NCBI GenBank assembly: GCA_964342875.1
Contig: CAYFHI010000003.1
Location: forward strand, 1-54,845
Length of the DNA stretch: 54,845 nt
Reading direction: 5' to 3'
From: an uncultured Dehalococcoidaceae bacterium
GTDB lineage: Bacteria; Chloroflexota; Dehalococcoidia; Dehalococcoidales; RBG-16-60-22
Positions 17,663 to 37,630 of the stretch are shown piece after piece; within the stretch, counting starts at the first letter, position 1, and each line of letters begins with the position of its first letter. Below the pieces are notes generated by a model, which saw only the letters and a list, made by a program, of their open reading frames with translations, made no database searches and was not told the origin of the DNA. The translations under genes and the position numbers were made by a program.

Positions 17663-18907
17663 TTACCCTCCTCTACCCTCCCCATCGGTCTTCACCAGGT
17701 AGGCATCCCTTCCGCCTGCGCCGTAGGAATGTGTCTCACCGGCGATGATGTAGCCGCCGTCCGCGGTCTGCTCTACCGAGTAGGCCACATCATCGTTCTC
17801 ACCACCGAAAGTCCGGTACCACTTTTCGTTCCCTTTCCCATCGGTCTTTACCAGGTAGGCATCTCTTTCGCCTGCGCCGTAGGAATGTGTCTCACCGGCG
17901 ATGATGTAGCCGCCGTCCACCGTAGGCTCGTTAACGAAGGTCTGCCGTACCGAGTAGGCTATATCATTGTCCTCACCACCGAAAGTCCGGTACCACTCCT
18001 CGTTCCCTTTCCCATCGGTCTTCACCAGGTAGGCATCCCTTTCGCCTGCTCCGTAGGAATATGTGTGACCGGCGATGATGTAGCCGCCGTCCGCGGTCTG
18101 CTCTACCGAGTAGGCATATTCAGGTTTATCGCCACCGAAAGTCCGGTACCACTCCTCGTTCCCTTTCCCATCGGTCTTCACCAGGTAGGCATCCCTTTCG
18201 CCTGCTCCGTAGGACTTTGTGTGACCGGCGATGATGTAGCCGCCGTCCGCGGTCTGCCGTACCGATTGGGCATATTCTTCTTTATCGCCGCCAAAGGTCT
18301 GGTACCACTCTTCGTTCCCTTCCCCATCGGTCTTCACCAGGTAGGCATCCGCTCCGCCTACGCCGGGGGCATATGTGTAACCGGCGATGATGTAGCCGCC
18401 GTCCGCGGTCTGCCGTACCGAGTGGACTGAATCATCTTGCTCACCACCGAAAGTCCGGTGCCACTCTAGGTTCCCTTCCCCATCGGTCTTCACCAGGTAG
18501 GCATACCTGTCACCTACGCCGGGGGAATAGGAATATGTGTTACCGGCGATGATGTAGCCGCCGTCCGCGGTCTGCTGTACCGAGTAGGCATATTCTCCTT
18601 TATCGCCGCCAAAGGTCCGGTACCACTCTTCGTTCCTTTTCCCATCGGTCTTCACCAGGTAGGCATCCCCTTCGCCTGCGCCGTAGGAATATGTGTAACC
18701 GGCGATGATGTAGCCGCCGTCCGCGGTCTGCTGTACCGATTGGGCAGATTCATGTTTGCCGCCGCCAAAGGCCTCCTCTGTCGAGGGCTTCTTAGCATCG
18801 GTAATTCTTCCCTTACCCGCATCTGAGTCTGAAAAGAAAACCACAACGAGCCAGATCATAACGGCTACCAGAATTAGAACCAAAGCTACTTTTACCCACT
18901 TTCTCAT
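17663..18907 (-). CDS. Membrane-anchored/secreted beta-propeller protein with 7 near-identical ~52-aa repeats
   Basis: N-terminal TM helix (VALVLILVAVMIWLVVVFF), then 7 copies of QTADGGYIIAG...AYLVKTDG.GN..W.RTFGG. Confidence 0.85.
   Translation of the reverse strand: MRKWVKVALVLILVAVMIWLVVVFFSDSDAGKGRITDAKKPSTEEAFGGGKHESAQSVQQTADGGYIIAGYTYSYGAGEGDAYLVKTDGKRNEEWYRTFGGDKGEYAYSVQQTADGGYIIAGNTYSYSPGVGDRYAYLVKTDGEGNLEWHRTFGGEQDDSVHSVRQTADGGYIIAGYTYAPGVGGADAYLVKTDGEGNEEWYQTFGGDKEEYAQSVRQTADGGYIIAGHTKSYGAGERDAYLVKTDGKGNEEWYRTFGGDKPEYAYSVEQTADGGYIIAGHTYSYGAGERDAYLVKTDGKGNEEWYRTFGGEDNDIAYSVRQTFVNEPTVDGGYIIAGETHSYGAGERDAYLVKTDGKGNEKWYRTFGGENDDVAYSVEQTADGGYIIAGETHSYGAGGRDAYLVKTDGEGRGG
17680..18770 (-). 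repeat. Intragenic tandem repeat with a ~156-bp unit, 7 copies
   Basis: Blocks such as GGCGATGATGTAGCCGCCGTCC and CCCATCGGTCTTCACCAGGTAGGCAT recur almost unchanged. Confidence 0.95.
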
Positions 18908-19007
18908 GATTTCACACCTACCCAATGATTGCATACATACTAGCTTGCAGAATTCCTTAGTTATACGTTACCATCCGTCTTTCAAGTAAGTCAATCTTCT
19001 TGGGATT

Positions 19008-19047
19008 AATACGCAATAGAGTATTGACGTAATTACGCATTTACGCT
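19008..19047 (+). repeat. 8-bp-period repeat array 1 over the parA promoter
   Basis: AATACGCA ATAGAGTA TTGACGTA ATTACGCA TTTACGCT. Confidence 0.75.
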
Positions 19048-19052
19048 ATACT
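19024..19052 (+). promoter_or_regulatory. Sigma70 promoter of the parA operon
   Basis: TTGACG (19024-19029), 17-nt spacer, TATACT (19047-19052); RBS GAGG before ATG 19073. Confidence 0.8.
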
Positions 19053-19072
19053 AATATTAAGAGGAACGACAT

Positions 19073-19849
19073 ATGCCGGTTATGTGCATTGCCAATCAAA
19101 AAGGCGGGGTGGGTAAGACCACCACGACAGCCGCTTTAGCTGAAGGTTTAAGCGAACAGGGCAAGCGTGTTCTACTAGTTGACTGGGATCCGCAGGGTAG
19201 CCTTACCATTACGATGGGGTTTAATCCGGAGGAACTTAAAATAACTGGCTATGAGCTTATTGCCAGTATCAGCAATAACAGGGGAAATCCCTCTATTAAT
19301 GACGTTACCGTCCGTACCAGTAACCCTAATGTCGACCTTATCCCGGCTAATGTCGAACTGTCACAGGCTGAGCTGGACCTGGTAGGAGCAACCAGCAGGG
19401 AATTAGTGCTGAAGAGGATACTCCAACCGGTACGAAGGTCTTACGACTTCATTCTGGTGGATTGTCTGCCCAGCCTGGGGCTTTTAACCGTTAATGCTTT
19501 ATCGGCGAGTGATAAAGTGTTGATACCGGTGCAAGCCGATTTTCTGGCAATGAAAGGACTTGTGCTCTTACTGGATACAATCATCCGCGTAAAGGACCGG
19601 ATTAACCCGGCGCTTGAGATTTCAGGTATTTTATTCACCATGACCAATATCCGTACCCTTCACAGCAGAGAGGTTATTGAAATGACAAAAAGGATATTCG
19701 TCAGCAGTATCAGAGTTTTTGACACGATTGTGCCCGTTAGTGTGCGCTTCAAGGAAGCCCCGGTCGCCGGTCAATCAATTATTACATATGCCGCTAATGC
19801 GGATGGAGCTAATGCTTACCGACAGCTGGCCAGAGAGGTGATGAAATGA
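19073..19849 (+). CDS. parA: ParA/Soj family Walker-A ATPase (no N-terminal HTH)
   Basis: NQKGGVGKTTT, DWDPQGSLT, DCLPSLGLLTVNAL and SVRFKEAP motifs. Confidence 0.93.
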   Translation: MPVMCIANQKGGVGKTTTTAALAEGLSEQGKRVLLVDWDPQGSLTITMGFNPEELKITGYELIASISNNRGNPSINDVTVRTSNPNVDLIPANVELSQAELDLVGATSRELVLKRILQPVRRSYDFILVDCLPSLGLLTVNALSASDKVLIPVQADFLAMKGLVLLLDTIIRVKDRINPALEISGILFTMTNIRTLHSREVIEMTKRIFVSSIRVFDTIVPVSVRFKEAPVAGQSIITYAANADGANAYRQLAREVMK

Positions 19850-20175
19850 AAAGAGTTCAAATTACCGAGCAACGAGTACTGGGTACCGCCCTGGACCGTC
19901 TTACAGGCGCCAATAATGAGGCACCGCCAACCGAAAAAGAAATCACCCGGCAATCCCGGCCTCCCATGATTAAACTATCTGTATTTCTAAACCGTGACGA
20001 AGACGCTTACCTGGAAAGCCTGGGGTCGGCGGCAAAATTTAGCGGCGGTAAAAAAATCAGTAAAACAAAATTAATTGAAGGAATGGTAAGTGCCTTCCGC
20101 CGCAGCAAACTCGATGTGAGTGGTGTCAGCAGCGATGAGGAGCTACTTAACCGGATAATTGCGCAGTTACGCTGA
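19846..20175 (+). CDS. Small ParA-partner protein, predicted ribbon-helix-helix DNA-binding protein
   Basis: ATGA overlap with parA; N-terminal LGTALDRL; strand IKLSVFL followed by helices RDEDAYLESL and SKTKLIEGMV. Fold assigned by eye. Confidence 0.7.
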   Translation: MKRVQITEQRVLGTALDRLTGANNEAPPTEKEITRQSRPPMIKLSVFLNRDEDAYLESLGSAAKFSGGKKISKTKLIEGMVSAFRRSKLDVSGVSSDEELLNRIIAQLR

Positions 20176-20197
20176 TGTGCATATGCGCATTTACGTA
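20158..20197 (+). repeat. 8-bp-period repeat array 2 at the 3' end of the partner gene
   Basis: ATTGCGCA GTTACGCT GATGTGCA TATGCGCA TTTACGTA. Confidence 0.75.
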
Positions 20198-20246
20198 ACT
20201 TATATTCATAAGAAAAGGAAGTGTTTAGAAAATTTTGAGGCTATCA

Positions 20247-20894
20247 TTACTTCTGGTCAGTCTGATAGTCGAGTAAGAAAACCTGTGTACTTATCGGCAG
20301 ATTTGACTTGGTGACGGATAATTTGGGTTGTGAGCCAATCTGTTCCAACCCCATCTCCTTAAGGAACTGCTCCACGGGTTCTAACTCCCTCTTTATTACC
20401 GGTGTTTTGTAATGCATGGGAATCACCGCCCTAGGCCCCAGCTGGCGGATAACTTCCGTAGCAATGGTCGCGTTGATTGTGGAAACACCGCCTACTGGAA
20501 GCAGCAGCACGTCGACAATATCTATCTCTTCCACCTGCTCAGGAGTAAGTGCATGACCCAAATCACCGAGGTGACATATCTTTACCCCTTCCACCTCCAA
20601 AAGAAAGACAGTGTTTTTCCCCCTTTCTTTACCTCCCTCCAAGTCATGAAAGGTAGCCACACCGATAATTAGTACATTGCCGATTTCATACTCACCGGGC
20701 CCGGTAACCAACCTGGGTTCACCGCCAATATCCTGTACATAAGAATGCGCCGGGTGCTGATGGCTAACGGTTACAATACGGGCTGTTTGCTTGCCGAACG
20801 TATAACCGAGGTCCGGGGGGAAAGGATCGGTAATAATAGTCGCCTGGCTACTTCGAATCTTAAAGCAAGAATGCCCTAACCAGGTAATATCCAC
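20247..20894 (-). CDS. MBL-fold metallo-hydrolase (UlaG/lactamase_B_3-like)
   Basis: ITWLGHSCF, TDPF, SHQHPAH, HLGDLG, PVGG and IPMHY motifs; GTG start inferred. Confidence 0.85.
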   Translation of the reverse strand: MDITWLGHSCFKIRSSQATIITDPFPPDLGYTFGKQTARIVTVSHQHPAHSYVQDIGGEPRLVTGPGEYEIGNVLIIGVATFHDLEGGKERGKNTVFLLEVEGVKICHLGDLGHALTPEQVEEIDIVDVLLLPVGGVSTINATIATEVIRQLGPRAVIPMHYKTPVIKRELEPVEQFLKEMGLEQIGSQPKLSVTKSNLPISTQVFLLDYQTDQK

Positions 20895-21010
20895 GTTGTA
20901 AACTATAGCACAGGTAGGCTTACCAGTCAAGGAAAGAATCAGGTTCCTCTACCAATTTTTTCAATTTCGCTTGACAATATAATTGTAAAAATGGTAAATT
21001 TAAATAAGGA

Positions 21011-21037
21011 TTAGCAGTCTAAGGCTTGGACTGCTAA
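21011..21037 (+). promoter_or_regulatory. CIRCE operator (variant)
   Basis: TTAGCAGTC-N9-GACTGCTAA directly upstream of hrcA; TTGACA at 20971. Confidence 0.92.
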
Positions 21038-21049
21038 TGGGAGGCAGAA

Positions 21050-22066
21050 ATGTTGTCAACCAGAACAGGAACGATACTCAAGTCGATTGTCGGGCAATAT
21101 ATTGATAAGGCAATACCAGTACCTTCGCAGTACATTGCCACTGACCCCGAGTTAATGGTAAGTCCGGCTACTATCCGTAATGAGATGGCACACTTGGAGC
21201 AAGAAGGTTATATTATCCGCCCCCACATTTCAGCCGGAAGCGTCCCCTCGGATAAGGGGTATCGGTATTATGTGGAGTCCTTGGAGAATATCCAGCTCCC
21301 GCAGGCGGAACAGCGTTTTGTCAGCCACCTCTTCCACCAGGTAGAGAAGGAAGTAGAACAGTGGCTAAACCTGGCATCAACCCTGCTAGCTCAGCTGGTG
21401 AAAAATCTGGCGGTAGTTACTCTACCCAAGTCAATGGACTGTAAATTCAAACACATAGAACTGGTCTCCATGCGTGATTCGCTGGCTTTACTCGTTCTCA
21501 TCCTTTATGGAGCTAAAGTGAAACAGAAGCTGATTACCTTTAATGAAGTTGTGACACAGCTTGAATTAACCGCTATTGCCAATAAACTAAATGACTATTA
21601 TTCGGGTCTGGCCGGCGGACAGATAAAAGCTACGGATAAGGAGCTTTCCCAGGCTGAACAGCAGATAACGGATCTGACGGTAGAGATAATGCGTGCTGAA
21701 GACGAGCAGGAGCTTGAAGAGCCTCACCTTGATGGCTTGCATTTTATACTCGGTCAGCCGGAATTTACCGGCGGACATCAAGGCTGTAACCTGATGGAAC
21801 TGGTGGAGCAGAGAAACCTACTGAAAGCAATCATCCCGCACGAGCCGCCCTACTACAGGTTACATATAATCATAGGTAAGGAGAATGAAGCGGAAGCTTT
21901 GCATAATTACAGCGTGGTCCTCAGCCAATATGGCATTCCTGATGAGGCGATGGGGACTCTCGGTGTCATTGGCCCAACCCGCATGGCCTATGCCCATGCC
22001 ATCCCCACGGTAAATTACCTATCCTCGATACTTAGCGAACTTGTGTCCGGGTTATACGGGAAATAA
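21050..22066 (+). CDS. hrcA: Heat-inducible transcription repressor HrcA
   Basis: SPATIRNEMA, PHISAGSVPSDKGYRYYV and GVIGPTRM motifs; adjacent CIRCE. Confidence 0.96.
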   Translation: MLSTRTGTILKSIVGQYIDKAIPVPSQYIATDPELMVSPATIRNEMAHLEQEGYIIRPHISAGSVPSDKGYRYYVESLENIQLPQAEQRFVSHLFHQVEKEVEQWLNLASTLLAQLVKNLAVVTLPKSMDCKFKHIELVSMRDSLALLVLILYGAKVKQKLITFNEVVTQLELTAIANKLNDYYSGLAGGQIKATDKELSQAEQQITDLTVEIMRAEDEQELEEPHLDGLHFILGQPEFTGGHQGCNLMELVEQRNLLKAIIPHEPPYYRLHIIIGKENEAEALHNYSVVLSQYGIPDEAMGTLGVIGPTRMAYAHAIPTVNYLSSILSELVSGLYGK

Positions 22067-22217
22067 ACTCCGGACTATCCCTGCTCATACCCCTCCAGTA
22101 ACAATCAATAAAAGAGCCAATAAAGGAGCATTAAATAGAGACCTGTACCACTGCCGGTAATAACCTCTCTTGATAAATGAGGAGATAGCAAAACGGTAGT
22201 GAAGAATATTATAAGGA

Positions 22218-22775
22218 TTGAAAATGGTAAAACGAGAACCGGAAGATATTACAAATAACGAAGTGGGGCCAGAAGTTGTTGATACCTCTGACTTGAACTC
22301 ATTAAAGCAGGCACTGGACGCAGAAAAGGAAAAAGCGGAGGAGTATCTGGTAAACTGGCAGAGGGCCCTAGCCGACTATATCAATTTAAAACGGCGTAAT
22401 GACCAGGAACGGAAAGACCTGAGCAAGTTTGCCAATTCTGTTTTAATACTCAGCTTACTGCCCACACTGGATGACCTGGAAAGGGCGTTAAGTTCTCTTC
22501 CACCCAAACCGGCCAAATCAGCAGGCTGGATAGACGGCATTAAGCTCATTGAACAAAATCTGAAGACCACTCTGCAATCTCAGGGAGTGACTCCGGTCGA
22601 AGCGATAGGGAAACCGTTTGACCCTAGTTTCCATGAGGCTGTCCGGCAGAATAAGGGCAAAGAAGGGATTATTATTGAGGAGTTACAAAAGGGTTATTTT
22701 TTAAATGATAAACTTCTCAGGCCAAGCGTAGTAGTGGTTGGCAACGGAGAAGAGGAAGAAAAGGAGGATAATTAA
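22218..22775 (+). CDS. grpE: Nucleotide exchange factor GrpE
   Basis: ADYINLKRR, FDPSFHEAV and QKGY...LRPSVVVV motifs. Confidence 0.95.
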   Translation: MKMVKREPEDITNNEVGPEVVDTSDLNSLKQALDAEKEKAEEYLVNWQRALADYINLKRRNDQERKDLSKFANSVLILSLLPTLDDLERALSSLPPKPAKSAGWIDGIKLIEQNLKTTLQSQGVTPVEAIGKPFDPSFHEAVRQNKGKEGIIIEELQKGYFLNDKLLRPSVVVVGNGEEEEKEDN

Positions 22776-24698
22776 ATGGGGAAAGTTATCGGCATTGATC
22801 TGGGCACAACAAACTCAGCGGTATCCGTAATGGAAGGAGGAGAACCGGTAATAATACCAAATGCCGAGGGTGGACGCACCACCCCGTCAATGGTTGCGAT
22901 GGGTAAAGGTGGCGAAAGGTTGGTCGGACAGGTAGCCAAGCGTCAGGCGATAACCAATCCTGATCACACAATTTACAGCATCAAGCGACTTATGGGTCGT
23001 AAATTCGATGAGTCCAGTGTTGAATATGATAAGAAATTACTCCCTTATAAGATTACAAAGGCATCTAATGATGACGCCAAGGTAATAATGAGCGGCAAGG
23101 GGTATACTCCGCCCGAAATATCGGCGATGATTCTGCAAAAATTGAAGACAGATGCCGAAGCTTACCTTGGTGAAAAAGTAACCGAAGCAGTCATCACCGT
23201 ACCCGCATACTTCAACGACAGCCAACGGCAGGCAACCAAAGATGCCGGCAAAGTAGCCGGTCTTGAAGTGCTGCGTATTGTTAACGAGCCTACGGCTGCC
23301 GCTTTAGCCTACGGACTGGACAAAAAGCATGATGAGACCATCGCCGTGTATGACCTCGGCGGCGGTACCTTTGACATATCAATCCTGGAACTGGGTGAAG
23401 GTACTTTCCAGGTTAAATCCACCAACGGCGATACCCACCTCGGTGGTGACGACTTCGACCAGAAGATTATTGACTGGCTATGCGACGAGTTTAAACGCGA
23501 ACAAGGAATAAACCTGAGAGAGGATAAAATGGCGCTGCAAAGGCTGAAAGAAGCAGCAGAAAAAGCTAAAAGCGAGCTGTCAACCGTAGCCCAGACCGAG
23601 GTAAATCTTCCCTTTGTTACCGCCGATGCCAATGGACCCAAACATCTCAATATAACACTCACCCGGGCTAAACTGGAACAGCTTATTATGGACCTAGTCG
23701 AAAGAACCATAGGGCCCTGTAAACAAGCATTAGCCGATGCCGAAAAGACGGCCGCACAGATTGATGAAGTGATTCTGGTCGGCGGGCAGGGCAGGATGCC
23801 CCTAGTGCAGGAGAAAGTAAAACAGTTCTTCGGGAAAGAACCCCATAAGGGCGTCAACCCCGATGAGGTAGTGTCGATAGGCGCCGCCATTCAAGCCGGT
23901 GTGCTCAAAGGAGACGTCAAGGATGTACTGCTGCTTGATGTCACCCCGTTAACCCTGGGCATCGAGACTATGGGAGCGGTATCCACTCCCCTTATACCGC
24001 GTAACACAACGATACCCACTGCCAAGAGCCAGATTTTCAGTACTGCCGCCGATAACCAGCCCGGCGTAGAAGTCCATGTCATCCAGGGAGAACGACCGAT
24101 GGCAACCGACAACAGGACTCTGGGTCGCTTCATGCTTGACGGTATCCTGCCAGCACCACGGGGAGTCCCACAGATTGAGGTTACTTTTGACATTGATGCC
24201 AACGGTATTCTCAGTGTCCGGGCACAGGATAAAGGCACCGGTCGAGAGCAGAAAATCACCATTACCGCCTCCAGTGGTCTCTCCAAGGAAGAAGTGGAAA
24301 AAATGCAGAAAGAAGCCGAAATGCATTCCTCCGAGGATACCAAGCGCCGTGAGGAGATTGAGGCACGCAATGCGGCGGATACCCTGGCTTATACCGCCGA
24401 AAAAACACTGCGCGACAATAAGGAAAAAATACCTGAAGATTTAAACCAAGAAGCGGAGACCAAGATAGCTGCCGTTAAGTCAGCTTTACAGGGTACCGAT
24501 ACTGACGCCATCAACCAGTCGAGCCAAGAATTAAACGAGACTATGCAGAAGATCGGCTCGGCTGTCTACCAGCAACAGCCTCCTCCGGGAACAGAAACGC
24601 CACCGGGTGAGGAACCTCCACCCGGCGGTGAGCCGCCACCTAGCGAGGAAAGTGGCGGCGGAGAAGAAACCGTAGAGGGCGAGTTCAGAGAAGTGTAA
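22776..24698 (+). CDS. dnaK: Chaperone DnaK
   Basis: [17 protein letters not shown] and DLGGGTFD motifs; Pro-rich tail ending VEGEFREV. Confidence 0.98.
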
Positions 24699-24727
24699 AA
24701 GCAACTAATACACATGGGAGTCATTTA

Positions 24728-24760
24728 AGTGGGGCTTTAAGCCCCACTCTTCCTTTTTCT
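24728..24760 (+). terminator. Rho-independent terminator after dnaK
   Basis: AGTGGGGCT-TTA-AGCCCCACT followed by CTTCCTTTTT. Confidence 0.8.
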
Positions 24761-24824
24761 TTGTTATCTTTTCACACCCTGCCACTCTCACAGTATCCAT
24801 CGCTTATCCAGTAGTCTTGAACAT

Positions 24825-24888
24825 TTTACGTATATACGATTTTGCGCAATTACTCATTAACACATATGCGTATGTACTTGCTTCTGCA
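24825..24888 (+). repeat. 8-bp-period repeat array 3 (dnaK-radical SAM intergenic region)
   Basis: TTTACGTA TATACGAT TTTGCGCA ATTACTCA TTAACACA TATGCGTA TGTACTTG CTTCTGCA. Confidence 0.75.
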
Positions 24889-24949
24889 TATTCCCTTATT
24901 TGCGCCTGAGCATATCTAACGACTATACTTTAAGGGGTGGAGGCGCACA

Positions 24950-26779
24950 TTGCTTGACAACGAAATACTTCATAACGTTACCAAGCCGGCACGCTATACC
25001 GGCGGCGAATGGAACAGCATTGTTAAAGACTGGGACAGAACTAATGTCAGGATAACTCTCAGCTTTCCTGACCGGTATGAAATAGGGATGTCCAATATGG
25101 CTCTACCCATTCTCTATGAGCTGCTGAATAGCCAGCCGGATGTCCTTGCGGAGAGGGTCTACGCACCCTGGGTGGATATGGAAGCGGCAATGCGTGAGAG
25201 GGAAATTCCCCTCTGCAGTCTTGAATCAGGGCACCCCCTGAAGGATTTTGATGTCATCGGTTTCTTACTGGGCTTTGAACTTACCTATACCAACGTATTG
25301 AATATGCTCGACCTGGCTCAAATACCGGTCTTGGCTTCGGATAGAGATGATACCTATCCGGTCATAATTGCCGGGGGTAGCTGCACCCTTAATCCGGAAC
25401 CGATGTCCGACTTCATAGATTTTTTTGTCATCGGCGAAGGAGAGGAGGTCACCCTTGAGTTACTGGAAACCTTACGTGCCTGGAAGAAAAAAGGCACCAA
25501 AAACCAGCTCCTGCGCCAAGTGGCTCAAATCCCCGGCGTCTACGTACCCTGCCTGTATAACGTAGAATACCATCCTGACGGACTGCTTAAGAGTTTCGAA
25601 CCGGCTGACGCTGCCGCTAAACCTGTCATACAGCGCCGAATAGTAACCAAACTTCCCCCACCCCCAACTAGGCCGGTAGTCCCGTTTATTGAGGTTATCC
25701 ACGACCGTGGAGCCATAGAGATTCAGCGAGGATGCAGTCGCGGGTGCCGTTTCTGCCAGGCAGGGACCATATATCGCCCGGTGCGGGAGCGACCTCCCGG
25801 AGAGGTACTGCAGGCAGCCGGAGAGATTATCAGCAACTGCGGGTATGATGAAATCTCCTTGGTATCATTAAGCACCAGTGATTATACATACATTGAAGAG
25901 CTGGTTACCAACCTCTCCCGGAATCACCCCCAGATTTCCATCTCACTACCCAGCCTCCGCATTGACAATTTTTCCATCAGATTAATGAGTTCACTACCAG
26001 CGCATGCCAGGACTGGACTCACCTTTGCTCTGGAAGCGGGCAGCCAGCGACTACGTCAGGTCATCAATAAAAATATCCCTGAAGAGAAGCTTCTGGATAC
26101 GGTGGCTGGCGCGGTTGCCCGGGGCTGGACAACCCTCAAGTTATATTTTATGCTTGGTCTACCTACGGAAACCATTGATGATATAGAAACCATCGTCCAG
26201 CTCATCGAAAAGGTCCGCCTGGTCAGCCGAGAGAAGAGCGGCAGGAAACCACAAATAAGAATCAGCGCATCAACCTTTGTTCCCAAACCCCACACACCCT
26301 TTCAATGGGTCGCCCAAGCAAACGAACATGAGCTAAGCGCCCGGCACGAAATTCTTAAGCAGAAATTACCCCGGAAAGGGATAAAGCTATCCTGGCAGGA
26401 CCCACGACTCAGTTTACTTGAAGCTGTATTGTCAAGGGGTGATCGGCGGCTGGGGAAGGTCATTCATCGCGCCTGGCAGTTGGGTAGCACCTTTGATGCC
26501 TGGGATGAGTGCCTTAATTATGCAAACTGGCTCCGCGCTTTTGAAGAAACCGGCCTTGAACCCGGGTTTTACGCCTGGCGAGACCGCTCCTTGAATGAAT
26601 TACTGCCCTGGTCCCACATCGATTCCGGAGTAACCGTGAATTTCCTGAAAAAAGAATATCAGCGTGCTATACGGGGTAAGGAAACCGTTGACTGTCGTGA
26701 TAACACATGTAGCGCCTGTGGACTTCAGAAACGGCAACCGGAATATCCGCAAAAGCTCAAGGATTCAAAGATAACATAA
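24950..26779 (+). CDS. TIGR03960-type radical SAM protein
   Basis: KPARYTGGEWN, FPDRYEIGMSN, EIQRGCSRGCRFCQAG, FVPKPHTPFQW and C-terminal DCR...CSACG. Confidence 0.9.
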   Translation: MLDNEILHNVTKPARYTGGEWNSIVKDWDRTNVRITLSFPDRYEIGMSNMALPILYELLNSQPDVLAERVYAPWVDMEAAMREREIPLCSLESGHPLKDFDVIGFLLGFELTYTNVLNMLDLAQIPVLASDRDDTYPVIIAGGSCTLNPEPMSDFIDFFVIGEGEEVTLELLETLRAWKKKGTKNQLLRQVAQIPGVYVPCLYNVEYHPDGLLKSFEPADAAAKPVIQRRIVTKLPPPPTRPVVPFIEVIHDRGAIEIQRGCSRGCRFCQAGTIYRPVRERPPGEVLQAAGEIISNCGYDEISLVSLSTSDYTYIEELVTNLSRNHPQISISLPSLRIDNFSIRLMSSLPAHARTGLTFALEAGSQRLRQVINKNIPEEKLLDTVAGAVARGWTTLKLYFMLGLPTETIDDIETIVQLIEKVRLVSREKSGRKPQIRISASTFVPKPHTPFQWVAQANEHELSARHEILKQKLPRKGIKLSWQDPRLSLLEAVLSRGDRRLGKVIHRAWQLGSTFDAWDECLNYANWLRAFEETGLEPGFYAWRDRSLNELLPWSHIDSGVTVNFLKKEYQRAIRGKETVDCRDNTCSACGLQKRQPEYPQKLKDSKIT

Positions 26780-26819
26780 AGTAGGAAGCTGTCAGAGAAG
26801 TACCGGAGGTTTCTGCTTT

Positions 26820-29249
26820 CTAATTACCGGGTTCAAATGCGGCAATGGCCACCACTTTATCGCGCTTACCGGTTCTCATTATCCTAACCCCCTGAGTGCT
26901 TCTTCCCTGAACCGAAATACCCTTAACCGGAATGCATTCCACAATCCCTTCAGCGGATATTATCATCAGTTGTTCGGGCTGTGTGACCACCTGCGCGGTG
27001 GCTACACTCCCCGCTTTTTCAACAATATTGAAAGTCCTTACTCCCTGTCCGCCACGGTGCTGCCGCGGGTATTGCGCTACAGGAGTGAGTTTACCTAGGC
27101 CTCCTTCAGCCACCACCAGCAGGAAACCATCCTCTGAAGCCTTATCCATACTAACCACTCTGTCTCCGGATGCTAGGCGGATGGCCCGTACACCGCCGCT
27201 TGTCCTAGAACTTGCTCTTATTTCCGAAACGGCAAACTTGATTGATTTCCCTTTCCGGGTAACCAATATCACATCTTCCTGATCTGTTGCCAGACAGGCT
27301 GATATTAACTCATCGCCCTTTTCCAAGTCCATAGTAATAAGTCCGCTGCTCCGAACCGATGCAAATTTACTTACTGCCGTCCTCTTTATCTCTCCCTTGG
27401 CAGTAGCCATTACCAGAAAGGCTTCCGACATAAACCCGGTCACGGCTATCATCGCCGTAACCCTTTCATTCTCAGCCACGGTGATTAGATTAATCACCGC
27501 CAAGCCTTTTGCCGTCCGCGAGCTGCCGGCAGGGATTTCATAGCATTTAAGATAGAAAACTTTTCCACGGTTGGTAAAGAAATACAGGTCATCATGGGTA
27601 TCGCCAACAGTTAAAATCCTGACGGCATCTTCTTCCCTGGTTACCACGCCGATAATGCCTTTACCGCCACGGTGCTGCGGGGTATAAGTACGAGACGGAA
27701 TTCTCTTAATAAATCCACGCTCGCTGAGCGTCACGACAACTCTCTGGTGTGGAATGAGGTCTTCTTCACTGAATTCCAGCACGCCCTGCTCCATTAACTG
27801 GGTCCGGCGGGCGTCTCCATATTTAGACTTTAATTCCTCCACGTCCTCTTTTATCAGGAGTAATACTTTTTTAGGGTTTGCCAGCAGGTCTTCCAGATAG
27901 GCAATCGTCTTAATCACTGCCGCGTATTCGTCAAGTATTTTCTGCCTTTCCAGGTTCGCCAGGCGCCGTAATTGCGTATCAAGAATCGCCTGCGCCTGCG
28001 CTTGGCTTAACTCAAAATCAGTCATAAGGTTTTTACGGGCTGTGTCGACAGTTTCAGATTTCCGGATTGTGGCAATCACAGCATCGATATTGTCTAAAGC
28101 AATTCTCAGTCCCTCCAGGATATGAGCCCTTGTTTTGGCTGCTTTCAACTCGAATTTGCAGCGCCGTATGATAACTTTATAACGGAAATCTATGTAGTAC
28201 TTCAGTGCCTCTTTAAGATTGATGACCCTGGGCTGCCCGTCAACCAGAGCCAGCATATTCACGAAGAAAGACGACTGCATGGCAGTATATTTGTAGAGAT
28301 TATTAAGCAGCCTCTCCGGCTGAGTCTCTCTCTTTAGCTCGATGACAACCCGCATTCCTTGGCGATCTGATTCATCTCTTAATTCACTGATACCCTCTAT
28401 TTTTTTACTCTTGACAAGCCCGGCAATATTTTCTATCAGGGCTGCCTTATTCGTCTGGTAAGGCAGCTCACTGATAATAATCTGGCGGCGTTCAGAACCC
28501 GTGATGGTTCCAACGTGAGCCTTAGCCCGAATCACAACTTTACCATGACCGGTGGCATAGGCATTTTTTATCCCTTCATACCCCATAATAATACCCGCAG
28601 TGGGGAAATCAGGTCCCTTAATAAACTGGGTCAGCTCATCAATAGTGGCTTTATTATTATCAATAAAATAGGAAACAGCCTCACAGACCTCCGTGAGATT
28701 ATGCGGAGGTATGTTAGTTGCCATCCCCACGGCAATCCCGGAGCCGCCATTAAGCAGCAGATTGGGCAACCGGGTAGGCAAAACCACAGGCTCCTTCAAA
28801 CTATCATCAAAGTTTGGCCTAAAGCCGATGGTATCTTTTTCAATATCAACTAGCATCTCTTCAGCTATCTTCGACAGGCGCGCTTCAGTGTAACGCATCG
28901 CCGCCGGAGGGTCATCATCAACACTGCCAAAATTACCCTGCCCGTCAACCAGAGGGTAGCGCATTGAAAATCCCTGAGCCATGCGCACCATAGCATCATA
29001 CACGGAGGTATCACCGTGAGGATGATACTTACCTAAAACCTCACCAACTATCCGGGCACTCTTCTTATGGGGGCCACTGTGTCTCAATCCCATATCATTC
29101 ATCGCATAAAGTATACGCCGATGCACCGGTTTTAATCCGTCCCTAGCATCCGGTAAGGCACGTGAGACGATAACGCTCATAGCATAATCAAGGTAAGATG
29201 TCCTCATCTCATCTTCTATATTTATCGGTTTAACCGTTCCTAAAACCAT
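26820..29249 (-). CDS. gyrA: DNA gyrase subunit A
   Basis: [29 protein letters not shown] and GyrA-box QHRGGKG. Confidence 0.98.
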
Positions 29250-29264
29250 ATGCGGTTGAACCCC

Positions 29265-30083
29265 CTATTCTTCATCATTCCCTGTATCATCTTCGGTATC
29301 GCCAGACTCTGCCGGCAATACTTCCACCTCCCCTCCGCCAATTATAGTATATCCGGACTCTCCATTTGCATCGCCCTCGTAGTCAGTCTCCAGCTTCAAT
29401 ATTCTATCGCTGACCAGGGGCCGAACCTCCTCCAGACCCCTCGGGGGAAATGAAAGGAACCCAGCCTGGCTTGGATCCTGGTATACCTCTCGAATAATAA
29501 TAAGGAGCATATCTTCATTTGAACTCATCACCGCAGCAGTATACTTGTTACCACCCCGTATTAATTTTATTAATCTCTGAGAATATCTGGGGCTAACTCT
29601 CCCCAGATATTCTCCCCGTATATTTTCTACAATTAAATTAGACGCATCTATTTGTAAGTTTACGCTATCGCCGGCTAACATCTTAGCCAGCACTTCTTTA
29701 GGTGCCAGGTCATGAAGATACGCTTCACCAGCCTTGCCTATCTCTTTAATAAAGTGTTGTGGACCAACTTTATGAGATTCACTCTCTGCATCCGCCTGTG
29801 CTTCATTTAGATAGCTTAAACGCTGCAGGTTCTTTTTAGTAATAGCGTTATAGGGATCAAAAACCGCAGCCCGACTGTAGGCTTCCCTTGCCTGCGAATA
29901 TTCCCCCAGATTCATATGAGCTCTACCCAGACGATTATGGGCTTCCACATCACTAGGAAAGCTGTCAATTATATCTTTATTCACCTTAACGGCCTCACGC
30001 CACTGGCCCTGCATTGCCAAGGCTATCGCCTGCTGACTGCGCTGCCGCCTCAGTCTCGATAATTTCTCTTCGTTTTGCGTCAT
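29265..30083 (-). CDS. Tetratricopeptide-repeat protein
   Basis: DVEAHNRLGRAHMNLGEYSQAREAYSRA TPR unit; acidic tail. Confidence 0.8.
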   Translation of the reverse strand: MTQNEEKLSRLRRQRSQQAIALAMQGQWREAVKVNKDIIDSFPSDVEAHNRLGRAHMNLGEYSQAREAYSRAAVFDPYNAITKKNLQRLSYLNEAQADAESESHKVGPQHFIKEIGKAGEAYLHDLAPKEVLAKMLAGDSVNLQIDASNLIVENIRGEYLGRVSPRYSQRLIKLIRGGNKYTAAVMSSNEDMLLIIIREVYQDPSQAGFLSFPPRGLEEVRPLVSDRILKLETDYEGDANGESGYTIIGGGEVEVLPAESGDTEDDTGNDEE

Positions 30084-30240
30084 TTACAGCTCCGAAATCA
30101 ATCTTAACAATATATTTTACCCCAACTAAAAAAGCTTAACAAGAGGGTGCAGTCACGAAATTATTTTTAGTTTGACAAATTATTACAGATATCGTTAATA
30201 TTAAATAGAAGGACTTGATTCACACCTAAGGAGATTATCC

Positions 30241-30459
30241 ATGAAAGAGAAGGTTGAAGCGGCTCTTGATAAGATAAGACCGAACCTGATGCAGGATGGG
30301 GGTAATGTAGAACTGATTGATGTTGATGATGGTACGGTCAAAGTTAAATTAACCGGAGCATGCGGTGGTTGCCCGATGTCCACCATGACCTTAAAAATGG
30401 GGATTGAAAAAATTATCAAGGAAGAAATCCCCGAAATTAAAGAAGTAGTGGCTGTCTAG
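30241..30459 (+). CDS. NifU/NfuA C-terminal domain Fe-S carrier
   Basis: IRPNLMQDGGNVEL and GACGGCPMSTMTLKMGIE motifs. Confidence 0.93.
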   Translation: MKEKVEAALDKIRPNLMQDGGNVELIDVDDGTVKVKLTGACGGCPMSTMTLKMGIEKIIKEEIPEIKEVVAV

Positions 30460-30534
30460 AGGTTAAACAACCATCAAGCCGGTACCTGCGATGTGCTTAC
30501 CTCTTTATGGAGTGATTCGCCAAGTAGGAGTTTT

Positions 30535-31011
30535 ATGTGTCAACGCTGTGGTTGCCAGGAGATCTTAAGGAGCGGTAAGGAAAAGACCTTGGCTCGCATC
30601 CTAGATATTGTGAAGGAGTTGGGAGTTACGCCGGACAATGTGGACGATTATGAGGCTACCGAGGCTATTTCCGCTCAAATCGCCCCCTTCGGCTCCAGGG
30701 AGGATGATGTATTTCAGACTGCAGTCTGGATATCCAGCCTTCACGAGGGCTTAGCCCGGAGCGGCCGGGATGAACGTTACCAAGCCCATGTTCGCGCCTT
30801 CCGAGATATTTTTGCCCGTCTCCCGGTACGGGGGGAGCCCAAACGCATTGCCACTACATACCACCAGTTAGAGCAGCTAAGCCGCGAGTTAGATGAGCCC
30901 GCCCTGGCTTCCCTGACCCCTGAAATCCGTGATGTCATCCAGGCGGTAAACCATGTACATGACAACATGCCGACCAAGGTAGCAAGGTTGAAGGAGCGCT
31001 ATAACCTCTAG
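30535..31011 (+). CDS. Hypothetical protein with N-terminal MCxxCGC metal-binding motif
   Basis: RBS AGGAG at 30526; starts MCQRCGC; helical body with several His residues. Confidence 0.7.
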   Translation: MCQRCGCQEILRSGKEKTLARILDIVKELGVTPDNVDDYEATEAISAQIAPFGSREDDVFQTAVWISSLHEGLARSGRDERYQAHVRAFRDIFARLPVRGEPKRIATTYHQLEQLSRELDEPALASLTPEIRDVIQAVNHVHDNMPTKVARLKERYNL

Positions 31012-31035
31012 CGCCTGACACAGCTGTGAATATAT

Positions 31036-32262
31036 TTATTCCTCTTCCTCTACTTCCAGTTCAAATGCGCGGTGCAAAAACCGAACAGCGTCTTTAACAC
31101 TGACTTCATCAATGATGCAGGTTATTCTTATTTCCGAAGTAGTAATCAACTGTATATTGATATTATTGTCACTGAGGGTGCTGAACATCCTTGCGGCATA
31201 ACCGGGGGTATCCTGCATGCCGGTGCCGATAATGCTCACCTTACCTAACCTGGAATCGCTTAAGCATTCTCTGGCACCAATGGACCGGGCAATTGGTTCA
31301 ACAACCGCCATCGCTGCGGTTAAATGGGTCTTTACCACCGTAAAGGTCAGGTCAGTAATATTCTCAATACTGGCGTTTTGAACAATTGTGTCGACACTGA
31401 CTCCGGATATACTAAGAGGGACAAAGATAGACGAGGCAATTCCCGGGCGATCCGGCACACCAACCACAGTAATCTTGGCGACATCAAGGTCGTGGGCGAT
31501 ACTTCTTACCTTATTGCGTATTTCCATAGTTACCTCTCTCTTTATTAATGTGCCGGGGCTTTTATTAAAGCTGGAAGCTACCAGGATGGGAATATCAAAT
31601 AACTCTCCCAGCTCCACTGCCCTCGGGTGCATCACTCTGGCACCATAGCTTGCCAGCTCCAGCATCTCTTCATAACCGATATCACGTAAATTACGAGCCT
31701 CAGGAACAATGCGAGGATCCGCCGTATAGACACCATCAACGTCAGTATATATCTGGCTCACCTCAGCCCCCAGACTAGCTGCCAGCGCTACGGCGGTTGT
31801 ATCTGAACCACCCCTCCCCAATGTGGTTACATCCAGTTCATCGGTAATGCCCTGAAACCCTGCAACAATAACAATGTTTCCCTTCTCCATCTCCTGTCTC
31901 ACGCGTTTGGGGTCAATCTCAAGGATCCTTGCCTTACTATGAGCCGTATCCGTCCTAATTCCCGCCTGAGCGCCGCTGAGGCTTATCGCCGGATAATCCA
32001 TACTGTGAAGCGCCATGGTCAGTAGCGTACTGGAGACCACTTCACCGGTAGATAGGAGAACATCAAGCTCCCTGACATCCGGATGCTCCGAAACCCGATC
32101 AGCCAGATCAATCAGCCCATCAGTAGTCTCACCCATCGCTGAGACTACTGCCACTACCTGGTCTCCTCTGTCTCTGGCTTCAGCAATGCGCTGTGCTACG
32201 TTTTTAATCTTATCGGCATCCGCCACCGAAGAACCGCCGTATTTTTGTACAATTAAAGCCAT
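31036..32262 (-). CDS. lysC: Aspartate kinase
   Basis: VQKYGGSSV, VVSAMG, TTLGRGGSDTTA, TDVDGVYTADPR and two ACT domains. Confidence 0.96.
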   Translation of the reverse strand: MALIVQKYGGSSVADADKIKNVAQRIAEARDRGDQVVAVVSAMGETTDGLIDLADRVSEHPDVRELDVLLSTGEVVSSTLLTMALHSMDYPAISLSGAQAGIRTDTAHSKARILEIDPKRVRQEMEKGNIVIVAGFQGITDELDVTTLGRGGSDTTAVALAASLGAEVSQIYTDVDGVYTADPRIVPEARNLRDIGYEEMLELASYGARVMHPRAVELGELFDIPILVASSFNKSPGTLIKREVTMEIRNKVRSIAHDLDVAKITVVGVPDRPGIASSIFVPLSISGVSVDTIVQNASIENITDLTFTVVKTHLTAAMAVVEPIARSIGARECLSDSRLGKVSIIGTGMQDTPGYAARMFSTLSDNNINIQLITTSEIRITCIIDEVSVKDAVRFLHRAFELEVEEEE

Positions 32263-32342
32263 AATCTAACAACTCCGGTACAATATCAGCAATCGCCTAA
32301 TTTCTAAAAACAATCTTTATACCCGTCCTTGTCTGCAAATTA

Positions 32343-32374
32343 ATTTCTCATATACGCATTTACTCATTTGCGTA
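32343..32374 (+). repeat. 8-bp-period repeat array 4 (lysC-apgM intergenic region)
   Basis: ATTTCTCA TATACGCA TTTACTCA TTTGCGTA. Confidence 0.7.
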
Positions 32375-35598: not shown

Positions 35599-35963
35599 TT
35601 TCAGCCTCCCAGTATCAAATTCTAACAAAAAATATTTTCTAAAACAACTTTTTATTTTGTACCTAACAGCTCAATATTCGATAAAAAACCGAGATTTTCA
35701 GAGATTATAAGGGAAAAGAGAAGACGAAAATGGCAATCGTTTACCGACAAAAACCTTGCCATTAACAAACTATACTAGTATTCTATTGGATGTTAACTAC
35801 TTAATAAATTAATACTTTATTAAGTATATACCGCTTCCAAATCCGGTGAGTTTCCGTTGGTGGTAAAATCGTAACCTGGGTGAATTTGTGCCTTTAATTA
35901 GACAGATAATATTATAAACATTGTATTTTTGGACTTTTAGCATAATTTCGTGGAAGGAAATTA

Positions 35964-37319
35964 ATGTCACCTAGAACAGCGCGAGAGATTTGGGAAGTCA
36001 CTTTGGGAGAACTTCAGGTACAGGTCAGTAAGCCAAACTATCGTACTTGGTTCGAAAAAACCACTGGACTGGAATATCGGGGGAATCAATTTATAATTGG
36101 TGTCCCAAGTACCTTTGTTGCCGAATATCTAGACAAGAATCAGCGCTCGCTAATTGAGAAATCACTAATTAACCTCACCTCTCCCGATTTACAGATTGTA
36201 TTCCAAGTAAATGGGAGGTGTCATACTTCACCACCTAGGTACCATAATAGTAAATCGAAAACACATCTTAATCGATTCATCTATCCTCATAGATTTAACC
36301 CAAAATATATCTTTGACTCGTATATTGAAGGAAGCTGCAACCGATTGGCACGTGCCTCCGCCCTAGCGGTTATCCAGAATCCGGGACACACCTATAATCC
36401 GCTTTTTATTTACGGAGGCGTGGGACTAGGTAAAACACATCTGTTACACTCTATCGGTCACGCCGCACAGGTGAACCAGACCACGATTGTCTGTGCTAGC
36501 GGTGAGCAGTTTACAAACGAGTTCATTAGTTCAATACGGGAGAAAACAACCGTAGAATTCTGCGCCAAGTACAGAAGTGTTGACATGCTATTGATTGATG
36601 ATATCCAGTTTATCGGTGGGAAAGAACAGACAGCGGAAAGCTTTTTCCATACTTTTAACGAACTGCACAATGCTAACCACCAAATAGTCATCACCAGTGA
36701 CCGTGCTCCTAAATCAATGCCCTTCCTGACGGATAGGCTCCGCTCTCGACTCGAATGGGGATTAATGGTCGAAGTAAAACCGCCTGACCTTGAGACACGC
36801 TTGGCTATTTTGAAAGCAAAGTCTGATTCTAAAAACATAAACTGTACTTTAAGTGTGCTGGAGTTAATAGCTAAAAAGACTCAGCACAACATCAGAGAAC
36901 TTGAGGGATCTTTAAACCGTGTACTCGCTTATGCTAAATTACTAAAAGCCATACCTACAATTGATCTAGCTACGGAAGCTCTCAAAGACTTGGCTGATCA
37001 ACAACCCTGCGGCATATCTATTACCCCTGACCTTATAATAAAGGCGGTAGCTAGTAGTTTCCAAATATCAACAAAAGACATCATAGAACGTAAAAGAGAT
37101 AAAGAGACTGTTCTGGCCAGAAGAGTAGCGATGTATATTCTCCGTCAGGAAACTATTCTCCCGATTACTAAAATCGGGAGAGAGTTAGGTGGTAGAGACG
37201 CTTCAGCAGTTACCAATGCATGTCAGAAACTAGCGAGTGATATCGAAGACAGTTCTTATCTAAGAAGTAAAATCCTAGATATTCAACAAAGAATTCATTC
37301 CGGAATAAACAGTAATTAG
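35964..37319 (+). CDS. dnaA: Chromosomal replication initiator DnaA
   Basis: YNPLFIYGGVGLGKTHL, LLIDDIQF, RLRSR and NIRELEG motifs. Confidence 0.97.
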   Translation: MSPRTAREIWEVTLGELQVQVSKPNYRTWFEKTTGLEYRGNQFIIGVPSTFVAEYLDKNQRSLIEKSLINLTSPDLQIVFQVNGRCHTSPPRYHNSKSKTHLNRFIYPHRFNPKYIFDSYIEGSCNRLARASALAVIQNPGHTYNPLFIYGGVGLGKTHLLHSIGHAAQVNQTTIVCASGEQFTNEFISSIREKTTVEFCAKYRSVDMLLIDDIQFIGGKEQTAESFFHTFNELHNANHQIVITSDRAPKSMPFLTDRLRSRLEWGLMVEVKPPDLETRLAILKAKSDSKNINCTLSVLELIAKKTQHNIRELEGSLNRVLAYAKLLKAIPTIDLATEALKDLADQQPCGISITPDLIIKAVASSFQISTKDIIERKRDKETVLARRVAMYILRQETILPITKIGRELGGRDASAVTNACQKLASDIEDSSYLRSKILDIQQRIHSGINSN

Positions 37320-37610
37320 CTCAGTACCCATTAACTTTTCCCTTTAATCATCGATACCTTCAGAATATGATCGCTTTGTTTTATAAATGATTAAGTTAGT
37401 TTTTGCTATCGTTTTGTGACTTTTTTAGGATATCTTTGCGAGTATTAAACCAAGATTTCAAAACTGATACGCCACGGATCAGGTACCAACATAATCTTTA
37501 AAACCGCCAGCACCAGTTTATTAGTATTATTAGTATTATTAAAAAAGAATACTGTATAGAACTAAAGTCATATAAGTAATAAATAGTTTAGTTTTTTAAG
37601 ATAATTACTT
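37320..37610. other. Candidate replication origin (oriC/DUE)
   Basis: AT-rich dnaA-obgE spacer; GC patch CCGCCAGCACCAG followed by (TTA/GTA)x8 trio-like run at 37518-37541; by eye the + strand changes from C-rich to G-rich around here. Confidence 0.6.
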
Positions 37611-37630
37611 GATTGTTCTCTGATAGTAGA

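Follow-up and report, generated by a model that had tools for sequence, protein, structure and literature searches.

How can the origin region of a bacterial chromosome be captured and moved if the ParA encoded near it is accompanied by something other than ParB? The question is raised by contig CAYFHI010000003.1 of an uncultured Dehalococcoidaceae bacterium (assembly GCA_964342875.1), a stretch of 54,845 nucleotides that was analysed at its full length and is called the window here. Not far from dnaA it carries an operon composed of parA and a small partner gene, together with four arrays of contiguous 8-bp units (S1 to S4), two of them at the operon and two in spacers between other genes. 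Reviews take every bacterial chromosomal centromere-binding protein as a helix-turn-helix (HTH) ParB CTPase (PMC5002424). We consider it probable, if well short of certain, that the operon and its arrays constitute an origin-proximal iteron-type centromere with autorepression, which replaces ParB/parS in one family of marine Dehalococcoidales. The features concerned are the following.

19073–19849, + strand: parA, Soj-type deviant Walker A ATPase, 258 aa (Pfam AAA_31, 1.7e-58)
19846–20175, + strand: partner gene, 109 aa (N-terminal peptide 1–21, Pro-rich linker, C-terminal DNA-binding-like domain 39–109)
19024–19052, + strand: sigma70-like promoter TTGACG-17-TATACT of the parA–partner operon (10/12 matches, consensus scan only)
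19008–19047: array S1, five units of 8 bp that overlie the parA promoter; a candidate both for operator and for centromere-like site
20158–20197: array S2, five units that span the stop codon of the partner gene, where two convergent genes meet
24825–24888: array S3, four to five good units and a weak rest, after the dnaK terminator and upstream of a B12/radical-SAM gene
32343–32374: array S4, four units in the spacer between the aspartate kinase gene (lysC) and apgM
24728–24748: dnaK terminator
24950–26779: TIGR03960 B12/radical-SAM gene (rSAM), downstream of S3
35964–37319, + strand: dnaA, marker of the origin region

Phased arrays in the window

All four arrays that a preliminary description of this DNA had reported were found at these positions, and parA is coupled, as it had stated, to a 109-aa gene without a ParB or HTH signature: the two genes overlap by 4 bp and the product has no Pfam hit. 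The 8-bp unit follows the consensus W-T-T-R-C-K-C-A, made up of a 4-bp box (RCKC, often reading GCGC, ACGC or ACTC) and a 4-bp AT-rich spacer. Units 3–5 of S1 overlie the -35 element and the spacer of the sigma70-like promoter, while S2 starts in the last codons of the partner gene, its first two units being coding, and extends 25 bp beyond. S3 had been described as one phased array of 64 bp; its position held, but a good match is confined to the first four to five units and the remainder is weak. Likewise, the 8-bp phase of the octamers was confirmed, whereas their single orientation proved uninformative: as a palindromic hexamer, the core TRCGYA leaves "same orientation" with little meaning, and the orientation of arrays in relatives is mixed.

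A matrix built from any single one of the four arrays ranked the other three second to fourth in the whole 631,574-bp draft, both strands included. The arrays recovered in this way scored 21–29, the next candidate in the 22-contig draft reached 13–17, and no fifth array was detected in these 22 contigs by the matrix scan. At a threshold of 21, which all four real arrays pass, the matrix derived from S1 alone gave no hit in each of ten first-order Markov genomes of equal size (maxima 14.4–18.2). Such arrays are thus neither common genome-wide nor at the level of chance, two outcomes that would have undone the preliminary description; they are specific and lie far beyond chance. The histogram of distances between strict hexamers in the same genome, which is 57% complete, was sparse and contributed little. 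Four seawater read sets gave contigs identical to the window over S2 and S3, with no differences reported within any array; this cover is fragmentary and was not used as evidence.

The spacer that holds S1 is shared with a gene divergent from parA (17663–18934, − strand), which encodes a beta-propeller repeat protein of 423 aa (DUF5122/SBBP-like repeats).

Operon and arrays in other genomes

The comparison covered 61 genomes, that is the window's own genome and 60 relatives, 36 of which belong to the same family. The partner was found, in single copy and with 58–70% identity, in 33 of the 61 (the own genome, 31 of the 36 family members and one member of a second family), and a ParA orthologue (65–72% identity) was found in exactly the same 33 genomes. 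The array pattern, searched as four units with up to two mismatches, was present in 35 genomes: all 33 partner-positive ones and only two of the 28 partner-negative ones, G034 (88% complete, with its array at a contig end) and G046 (61% complete). The reversed pattern, used as a control, gave 2 hits in all across the 61 genomes. The co-occurrence of operon and arrays anticipated by the preliminary description is therefore borne out. None of the operon genes or arrays was found in three complete genomes from other families (G039, G045, G047), and in G027, where the rSAM-dnaK-grpE-hrcA block with the adjoining metallo-beta-lactamase (MBL)-fold gene is syntenic, the operon is absent and so are the arrays, including from the dnaK/rSAM spacer. 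Beyond this set, 400 genomes drawn from across the phylum yielded no match to a profile of the partner.

Among the 28 operon loci in which the promoter region could be evaluated, 26 have a promoter array of at least three units that includes the TTGACGCA -35 element. Arrays at the 3′ end were seen in 20 of 30 operon loci, 12 of them extending at least 11 bp past the last codon; none was detected at the 3′ end in G026 (C2:1005522–1009500) and G001 (C23:54162–57002). In both, 3–4 kb of extra DNA separates the partner gene from the MBL-fold gene. Across genera the operon is chromosomal and syntenic beside hrcA-grpE-dnaK and near dnaA. Distal arrays are also present in relatives at the same intergenic positions, and the operon is not confined to mobile elements, which would have spoken against the preliminary description.

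In the light of these data we give almost no credence to a chance clustering of AT-rich, low-complexity spacer sequence. The arrays do lie in AT-rich intergenic DNA, as it would require, but cross-validation, the Markov null and the reversed-pattern control contradict it, as does the lack of arrays in 26 of 28 partner-negative genomes. HrcA, as another candidate binder of the arrays, was rejected: the arrays track the partner and not hrcA, which is present in the array-free genomes G027 and G028, and the HrcA/CIRCE motif differs from the array unit.

Position of the arrays around dnaA

The minimum of the cumulative GC skew falls at about 36–38 kb of the window, and the window arrays lie 4–17 kb from dnaA, on one side only. 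A matrix scan of six genomes returned 45 arrays, 4–12 per genome and mostly with 3–8 good units, all of them between −30 and +27 kb of dnaA; this is the enrichment near oriC that had been predicted. In G026 (1.9 Mb, 4 contigs, 92% complete) all matches, even at three mismatches, fall within C2:980–999 kb, on a 1.56-Mb contig that carries dnaA (987 kb) and the operon (1010 kb). All 25 matches in G005 lie within 22 kb around dnaA, and 22 of the 26 in G013 are on the dnaA contig, at most 8 kb from the gene.

The positions of S3 and S4 are conserved. Both are occupied in G026 and G001, which belong to other genera and whose flanking proteins are 55–80% identical to those of the window. The orthologous spacers are otherwise unalignable, and at S4 the array is the sole element common to three orthologous spacers. 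Recurrent positions include the region upstream of apgM, the convergent 3′ ends of rSAM and gyrA (G001, G005, G036) and the region beyond dnaA-dnaN. Spacers between convergent genes hold five of the 45 arrays, including S2 and those at the rSAM/gyrA 3′ ends in three genera, which suggests that the arrays are not operators only. A further 12 arrays were called intragenic by a crude longest-ORF (open reading frame) procedure, a call that we do not trust.

These positions bear on the main rival explanation, according to which the partner is a regulon repressor and nothing else: it would autoregulate its operon and a few origin-proximal housekeeping promoters (rSAM, lysC, apgM), ParA would have another role, and there would be no centromere. 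S1 does overlap the core promoter, and distant relatives of the partner's C-domain lack the N-terminal peptide, some being fused to PilZ (see below). On the other hand, five arrays are flanked by convergent 3′ ends, and three of these share an orthologous position; what the arrays have in common is a location within about 30 kb of dnaA and not one functional class of genes; their number varies from 2 to 12 among genera with the neighbouring genes unchanged; the partner, with its conserved N-terminal peptide, is strictly coupled to a Soj-type ParA; and Omega and ParG combine repression with centromere function. Weakened in particular by the convergent-gene arrays, the strict coupling to ParA and the restriction to the origin, a repressor without a centromere seems to us unlikely.

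A second rival would let the coated arrays structure oriC, or modulate DnaA through the Soj-type ParA, without any segregation. Soj regulates DnaA in Bacillus subtilis, and in G026, G005, G013 and G036 arrays occur on both sides of dnaA. In the window, however, the spacers flanking dnaA (35628–35964 and 37319–37613) contain no array, the nearest being 4 kb away. Iterons over a par promoter and a partner built of peptide, linker and DNA-binding domain are the anatomy of a partition cassette, and a homologous cassette described below, beside a Replic_Relax gene and an insertion sequence (IS) fragment, lies away from any dnaA. We regard an origin organiser of this kind as more doubtful still than the repressor. 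DnaA boxes of the E. coli type are not enriched in the window (16 vs. 12.5 expected).

Several points weigh against an origin-proximal centromere. Most arrays are in spacers compatible with a promoter (21 of the 45 between tandem and 7 between divergent genes, 28 in all), and S3 lies 15–45 bp upstream of a TTGCGC-N18-TATACT element, a possible promoter that is shared with G001; both points also favour the repressor. The unit matrix used for the counts in relatives was derived from the window arrays themselves, and some of the 3′ arrays may reflect codon conservation, part of S2 encoding the peptide RVIAQLR. Absence of arrays elsewhere in the chromosome is firm only for G026 and G005, as most relatives are fragmented and the own genome is 57% complete. 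Finally, what we observed is how the parts are built, conserved, found together and clustered at the origin, along with the class of the ParA and the topology of the partner's domain; binding of the arrays by the partner, its contact with ParA, autorepression and segregation are steps that we infer.

The ParA protein

The Walker motifs, including the deviant Walker A KGGVGKT, are invariant across 32 ParA sequences. Matches of the window ParA in the Protein Data Bank (PDB) were as follows.

8ray, ParA family protein: E 1e-52
6iub, H. pylori Soj: E 3e-43
1wcv, T. thermophilus Soj: E 7e-43
7dut, archaeal SegA: E 2e-16
2oze, plasmid delta: E 8e-15

ParF was not among the PDB matches at E 1e-10 or better. 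Judged by these matches, the best of which are Soj/ParA proteins at 1e-43 to 1e-53, the window ParA is of the chromosomal Soj type, and not ParF-, delta- or SegA-like. ParA itself was rejected as the binder of the operator, as it has no N-terminal DNA-binding domain.

Soj-type ParA proteins with 40–43% identity to that of the window were also seen in three other families of Dehalococcoidales (L045 3206–4502, L046 4158–5490 and L047 16–1141, in G040, G053 and G050, respectively). The small ORF that follows ParA in L045 and L046 differs from the partner and has the N-terminus ..MDVLKDIRGLL..; that in L047 differs again and is truncated by the contig end. Arrays of the window type were not found in these three loci, and the small ORFs may represent another non-ParB adaptor.

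ParB and parS

A ParB_N domain was detected in four of the 36 family genomes, in each case in a ParB_N-only protein (79–221 aa) encoded far from the operon and not beside ParA:

L094, 2047–2649: ParB_N-only protein
L095, 2162–2803: ParB_N-only protein
L096, 1744–2406: ParB_N-only protein
L097, 1986–2222: ParB_N-only protein

Their genes adjoin an N6/N4 DNA methylase, Mom-family or radical-SAM gene, and by this context the proteins look like parts of DNA-modification or defence modules and not like a partition ParB. A canonical ParB was accordingly not found in the family as sampled, none of the four proteins being partition-like. The preliminary description had seen no canonical parS in the window, and this extends to the family: searched for only by a consensus of the 16-bp palindrome, parS was found in none of 37 family genomes at up to one mismatch. 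In the own genome, given its incompleteness, the absence of ParB and parS means little alone.

The partner protein

An alignment of 30 partner orthologues revealed a conserved N-terminal peptide (MKRxxITEELAYGxALDRLTG, in which K2, R3 and R18 never vary), joined through a variable Pro-rich linker to a C-domain of 70 residues that is likewise conserved. No family was assigned to the partner from Pfam, PHROGs or NCBIfam. Pfam gave no more than DUF2274 in 7 of the 30 sequences (E ≥ 0.013) and RHH_3 (0.019) and RHH_1 (0.046) in one member each. Array units such as ATTGCGCA, GTTACGCT and similar ones (20158–20175; L005–L028) code for the conserved C-terminal peptide RVIAQLR, and the last codons of the partner gene would thereby also form part of a site that its own product probably binds.

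With 103 diverse relatives as input, the model of the C-domain reached a predicted local distance difference test (pLDDT) value of 95.4 and a predicted TM-score (pTM) of 0.74. Its topology is an extended segment at residues 39–49, which includes IKLSVFL, followed by helices at 50–65, 73–87 and 97–108; the candidate strand (residues 41–48, IKLSVFL) is unpaired in the model, which is that of a monomer, the only form modelled. In ribbon-helix-helix proteins two such strands, one from each subunit of an intertwined dimer, make an antiparallel beta-ribbon that enters the major groove. The top rows of a Foldseek search recurrently contained TacA2, Rv0298, AtaR, VapB26, the PutA DNA-binding domain, the ParD ribbon-helix-helix (RHH) domain and MetJ. 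RHH is stated only in the ParD row; the other entries we take to be RHH proteins as well. The tightest superposition was on the PutA DNA-binding domain (rmsd 1.9 Å over 46 columns, TM 0.77), and the C-domain also superposes on the ParD RHH domain (TM 0.68) and on MetJ (rmsd 2.4 Å over 46 columns). The nearest named clusters in the ESM Atlas (CB_ParB_C, DUF5388, Antitox_RHH, RHH_1 and MetJ) stayed without exception below a score of 0.9 and offer no more than leads.

Against an RHH assignment stand a poor model of the full-length partner (pLDDT 58 with 30 close sequences), on which a fold search was uninformative, a best Foldseek E-value against the PDB of 2.4 with none at E ≤ 0.001, sequence and profile searches of the PDB that returned only designed proteins and TTHA0139 (E = 0.058), and an hhalign comparison with an RHH_1 family that gave P = 0.072 with the register as expected, and nothing with a narrow alignment. 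No paper on TTHA0139 was found. A search for RHH_1 in the relatives at 1e-6 yielded only 3 loci. As a control, a Pfam-certified RHH_1 family itself reached Arc at 0.06 and CopG at 0.46 only; sequence and profile tests therefore have little power for this fold. The RHH partner put forward in the preliminary description is thus favoured by topology and by the best superpositions, but not by any significant hit, the sequence and profile tests being negative or marginal. We consider it likely but unproven that the C-domain is an RHH fold with one additional C-terminal helix.

A wider family and its arrays

Clustered at 90% identity, the partner family has no fewer than 1,566 clusters, and when a profile of the C-domain was searched exhaustively, 138 distant representative clusters emerged. 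These distant relatives belong to no Pfam family except for five PilZ fusions, in which the same small domain carries PilZ at its C-terminus (5 of 103 distant relatives, including P0140, P0142 and P0189); the fusions give hints of DNA binders linked to cyclic di-GMP (c-di-GMP).

In P0144 and P0152 an N-terminal KRASL.KG.G..LF peptide and an acidic linker precede the same C-domain. No genes like P0144 were found in the genome or metagenome contigs searched. Genes like P0152 were found on 33 metagenome contigs, and in all eight loci with upstream DNA a Soj-type ParA, 38–43% identical to that of the window, ends about 15 bp before the P0152-like gene. Upstream of parA in L062, L063 and L066, the three loci in which this region was examined, we observed 25–29 heptads in exact 7-bp phase, against 7–10 expected per locus; the heptad in these three loci is ATARGAW or its complement, in direct and inverted copies.

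L062, 153–535: heptad array, AT-rich lineage, upstream of the parA–partner operon
L063, 1909–2234: heptad array, AT-rich lineage, upstream of the parA–partner operon
L066, 164–490: heptad array, AT-rich lineage, upstream of the parA–partner operon

Unit and candidate strand change together: IKLSVFL goes with 8-bp units reading GCGC or ACTC, and IKTSVSL with 7-bp units. A model in which the strand reads the DNA would predict this covariation, seen here in a single comparison.

The heptad-type cassette of L063 adjoins a Replic_Relax gene and an IS1595 fragment, which suggests a mobile-element ancestry of the cassette. The term "domesticated", used in the preliminary description, fits this context, which is that of one locus; the present operon is chromosomal and syntenic. 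From the same context it could be argued that the window module is the leftover of an integrated plasmid or integrative and conjugative element (ICE), a partition cassette of plasmid-like architecture with no present role on the chromosome and with incidental distal arrays. Distant homologous cassettes next to the Replic_Relax gene and the IS1595 fragment agree with such an origin. Yet 33 genomes from different genera carry the operon intact, in single copy and in synteny, with 58–72% protein identity, the distal arrays were kept at orthologous sites while the surrounding spacers diverged, and neither 72,556 plasmid nor 50,697 phage records contain a match to the partner. We therefore find a functionless remnant very improbable.

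Comparison with known partition systems

Plasmids and archaea are known to use RHH adaptors. As in type Ib systems, contiguous repeats overlap the par promoter (S1; 26/28 evaluable loci). The N-terminal tail of the centromere-binding protein, which in those systems stimulates the ParA ATPase, has a candidate counterpart in the conserved peptide of the partner. A close parallel in layout is ParF-ParG-parH/OF of plasmid TP228, with a small binder that has a flexible N-terminal tail and with 4-bp boxes and 4-bp AT-rich spacers in an 8-bp period and mixed orientation. One ParG dimer binds per ACTC box, the boxes being regularly spaced by 4-bp AT-rich DNA; the operator over the parFG promoter has eight of these boxes and the centromere twelve, and their orientation is flexible (PMC3130281). 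In both systems one array covers the par promoter with others elsewhere, and the units in many relatives of the window read ACTC. In contrast to ParFG, the present system is chromosomal, with 4–12 arrays dispersed around oriC, its ParA is Soj-type and not ParF-like, and its partner has no detectable similarity to any Pfam family, that of ParG included, and, in the model, an extra C-terminal helix.

The delta-omega-parS system of pSM19035 likewise has separate arrays of contiguous short repeats over promoters, where Omega binds six sites of 7–10 contiguous heptads over three promoters and needs at least four contiguous repeats to activate ParA (PMC9499535). The window-type arrays have 3–8 units, and in the distant P0152-like lineage the units are 7-bp heptads, direct as well as inverted. 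An RHH dimer on each repeat and the requirement for at least four repeats are features of Omega. pSM19035, however, is a plasmid, delta matches the window ParA at only 8e-15, and the period in the window is 8 bp. Archaeal SegAB likewise has a chromosomal ParA and a non-ParB binder, RHH and site-specific in SegB and probably so here, with sites by the operon and elsewhere. SegB binds single 13-bp palindromes, 39–49 per genome, scattered and about 84% intragenic (PMC12284271). The archaeal scattered palindromes thus differ from phased intergenic arrays confined to the origin region, and SegA (7dut) matches the window ParA at only 2e-16. SegB was absent from the PDB profile searches with the partner.

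With ParABS (Soj/Spo0J/parS) the module has in common a Soj-type ParA, sites clustered at oriC and an adaptor whose N-terminal peptide has an invariant Arg; the N-terminal peptide of ParB alone is sufficient for ParA binding (PMC12462528). It differs in having neither a ParB_N CTPase/HTH adaptor nor a parS palindrome, so spreading or sliding clamps are not expected. HpaAB of Haloferax volcanii pHV3 pairs a ParA of bacterial origin with a disordered adaptor of about 150 aa, predicted to be RHH (PMC13722703); likened by this description only, it resembles the present pairing of a bacterial-type ParA with a small adaptor, but acts on a secondary chromosome of an archaeon. The partner's C-domain has MetJ among its closest superpositions. 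At the metbox, tandem 8-bp units are each bound by one RHH dimer of MetJ. Tandem 8-bp units are thus common to both, whereas MetJ is a metabolic repressor without a ParA partner.

By analogy, the arrangement of its sites in cis and the build of its adaptor would make the module a working counterpart of ParFG/parH and delta-omega, and the spread of its arrays about oriC resembles that of parS sites; by sequence it is a member of none of the families compared. The type Ib/SegAB-like system proposed in the preliminary description agrees with this as regards architecture and layout and fails at the ParA, which is Soj-type and not ParF/delta/SegA-like. The system is therefore a hybrid and no plain member of type Ib or SegAB.

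Proposed mechanism

In the mechanism that we propose for an origin-proximal centromere, the partner would dimerise through its C-domain, probably an RHH with one extra helix, and its dimers would coat arrays of 3–8 contiguous 8-bp units, probably one dimer per unit. Such arrays would serve at the operon promoter, at the operon end and at 2–10 further intergenic sites within about 30 kb either side of dnaA, and partner bound at the promoter array would also repress its own operon. The N-terminal peptide, on its flexible Pro-rich linker, may contact nucleoid-bound dimers of the Soj-type ParA and stimulate their ATPase, and a ParA gradient would then guide the movement of the origin region, in the manner of ParABS, ParFG/parH and delta-omega.

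Put in its most general form, a bacterial chromosome would be segregated without ParB by a Soj-type ParA together with small, likely RHH adaptors of a new family, which coat phased iteron arrays over about 50 kb around oriC, plasmid-type (Ib-like) logic having replaced ParB-CTP/parS. For this wider statement we see the balance as even. Searches of the literature, whose coverage left out most subscription-journal papers, brought up nothing that describes a system of this kind on a bacterial chromosome.

Implications

The partner represents an uncharacterised protein family with what would be a clear DNA code, its units measuring 8 bp here and 7 bp in a distant lineage. If the proposal is true, capture of the origin, and perhaps SMC loading, would be possible without a ParB clamp, and the ParA motor could be recoupled, on a main chromosome, to a quite different centromere chemistry. 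The family would then offer a natural test of which functions of ParB are dispensable, among them spreading, CTP gating and SMC loading, and the system would account for origin positioning in the ParB-less Dehalococcoidales.

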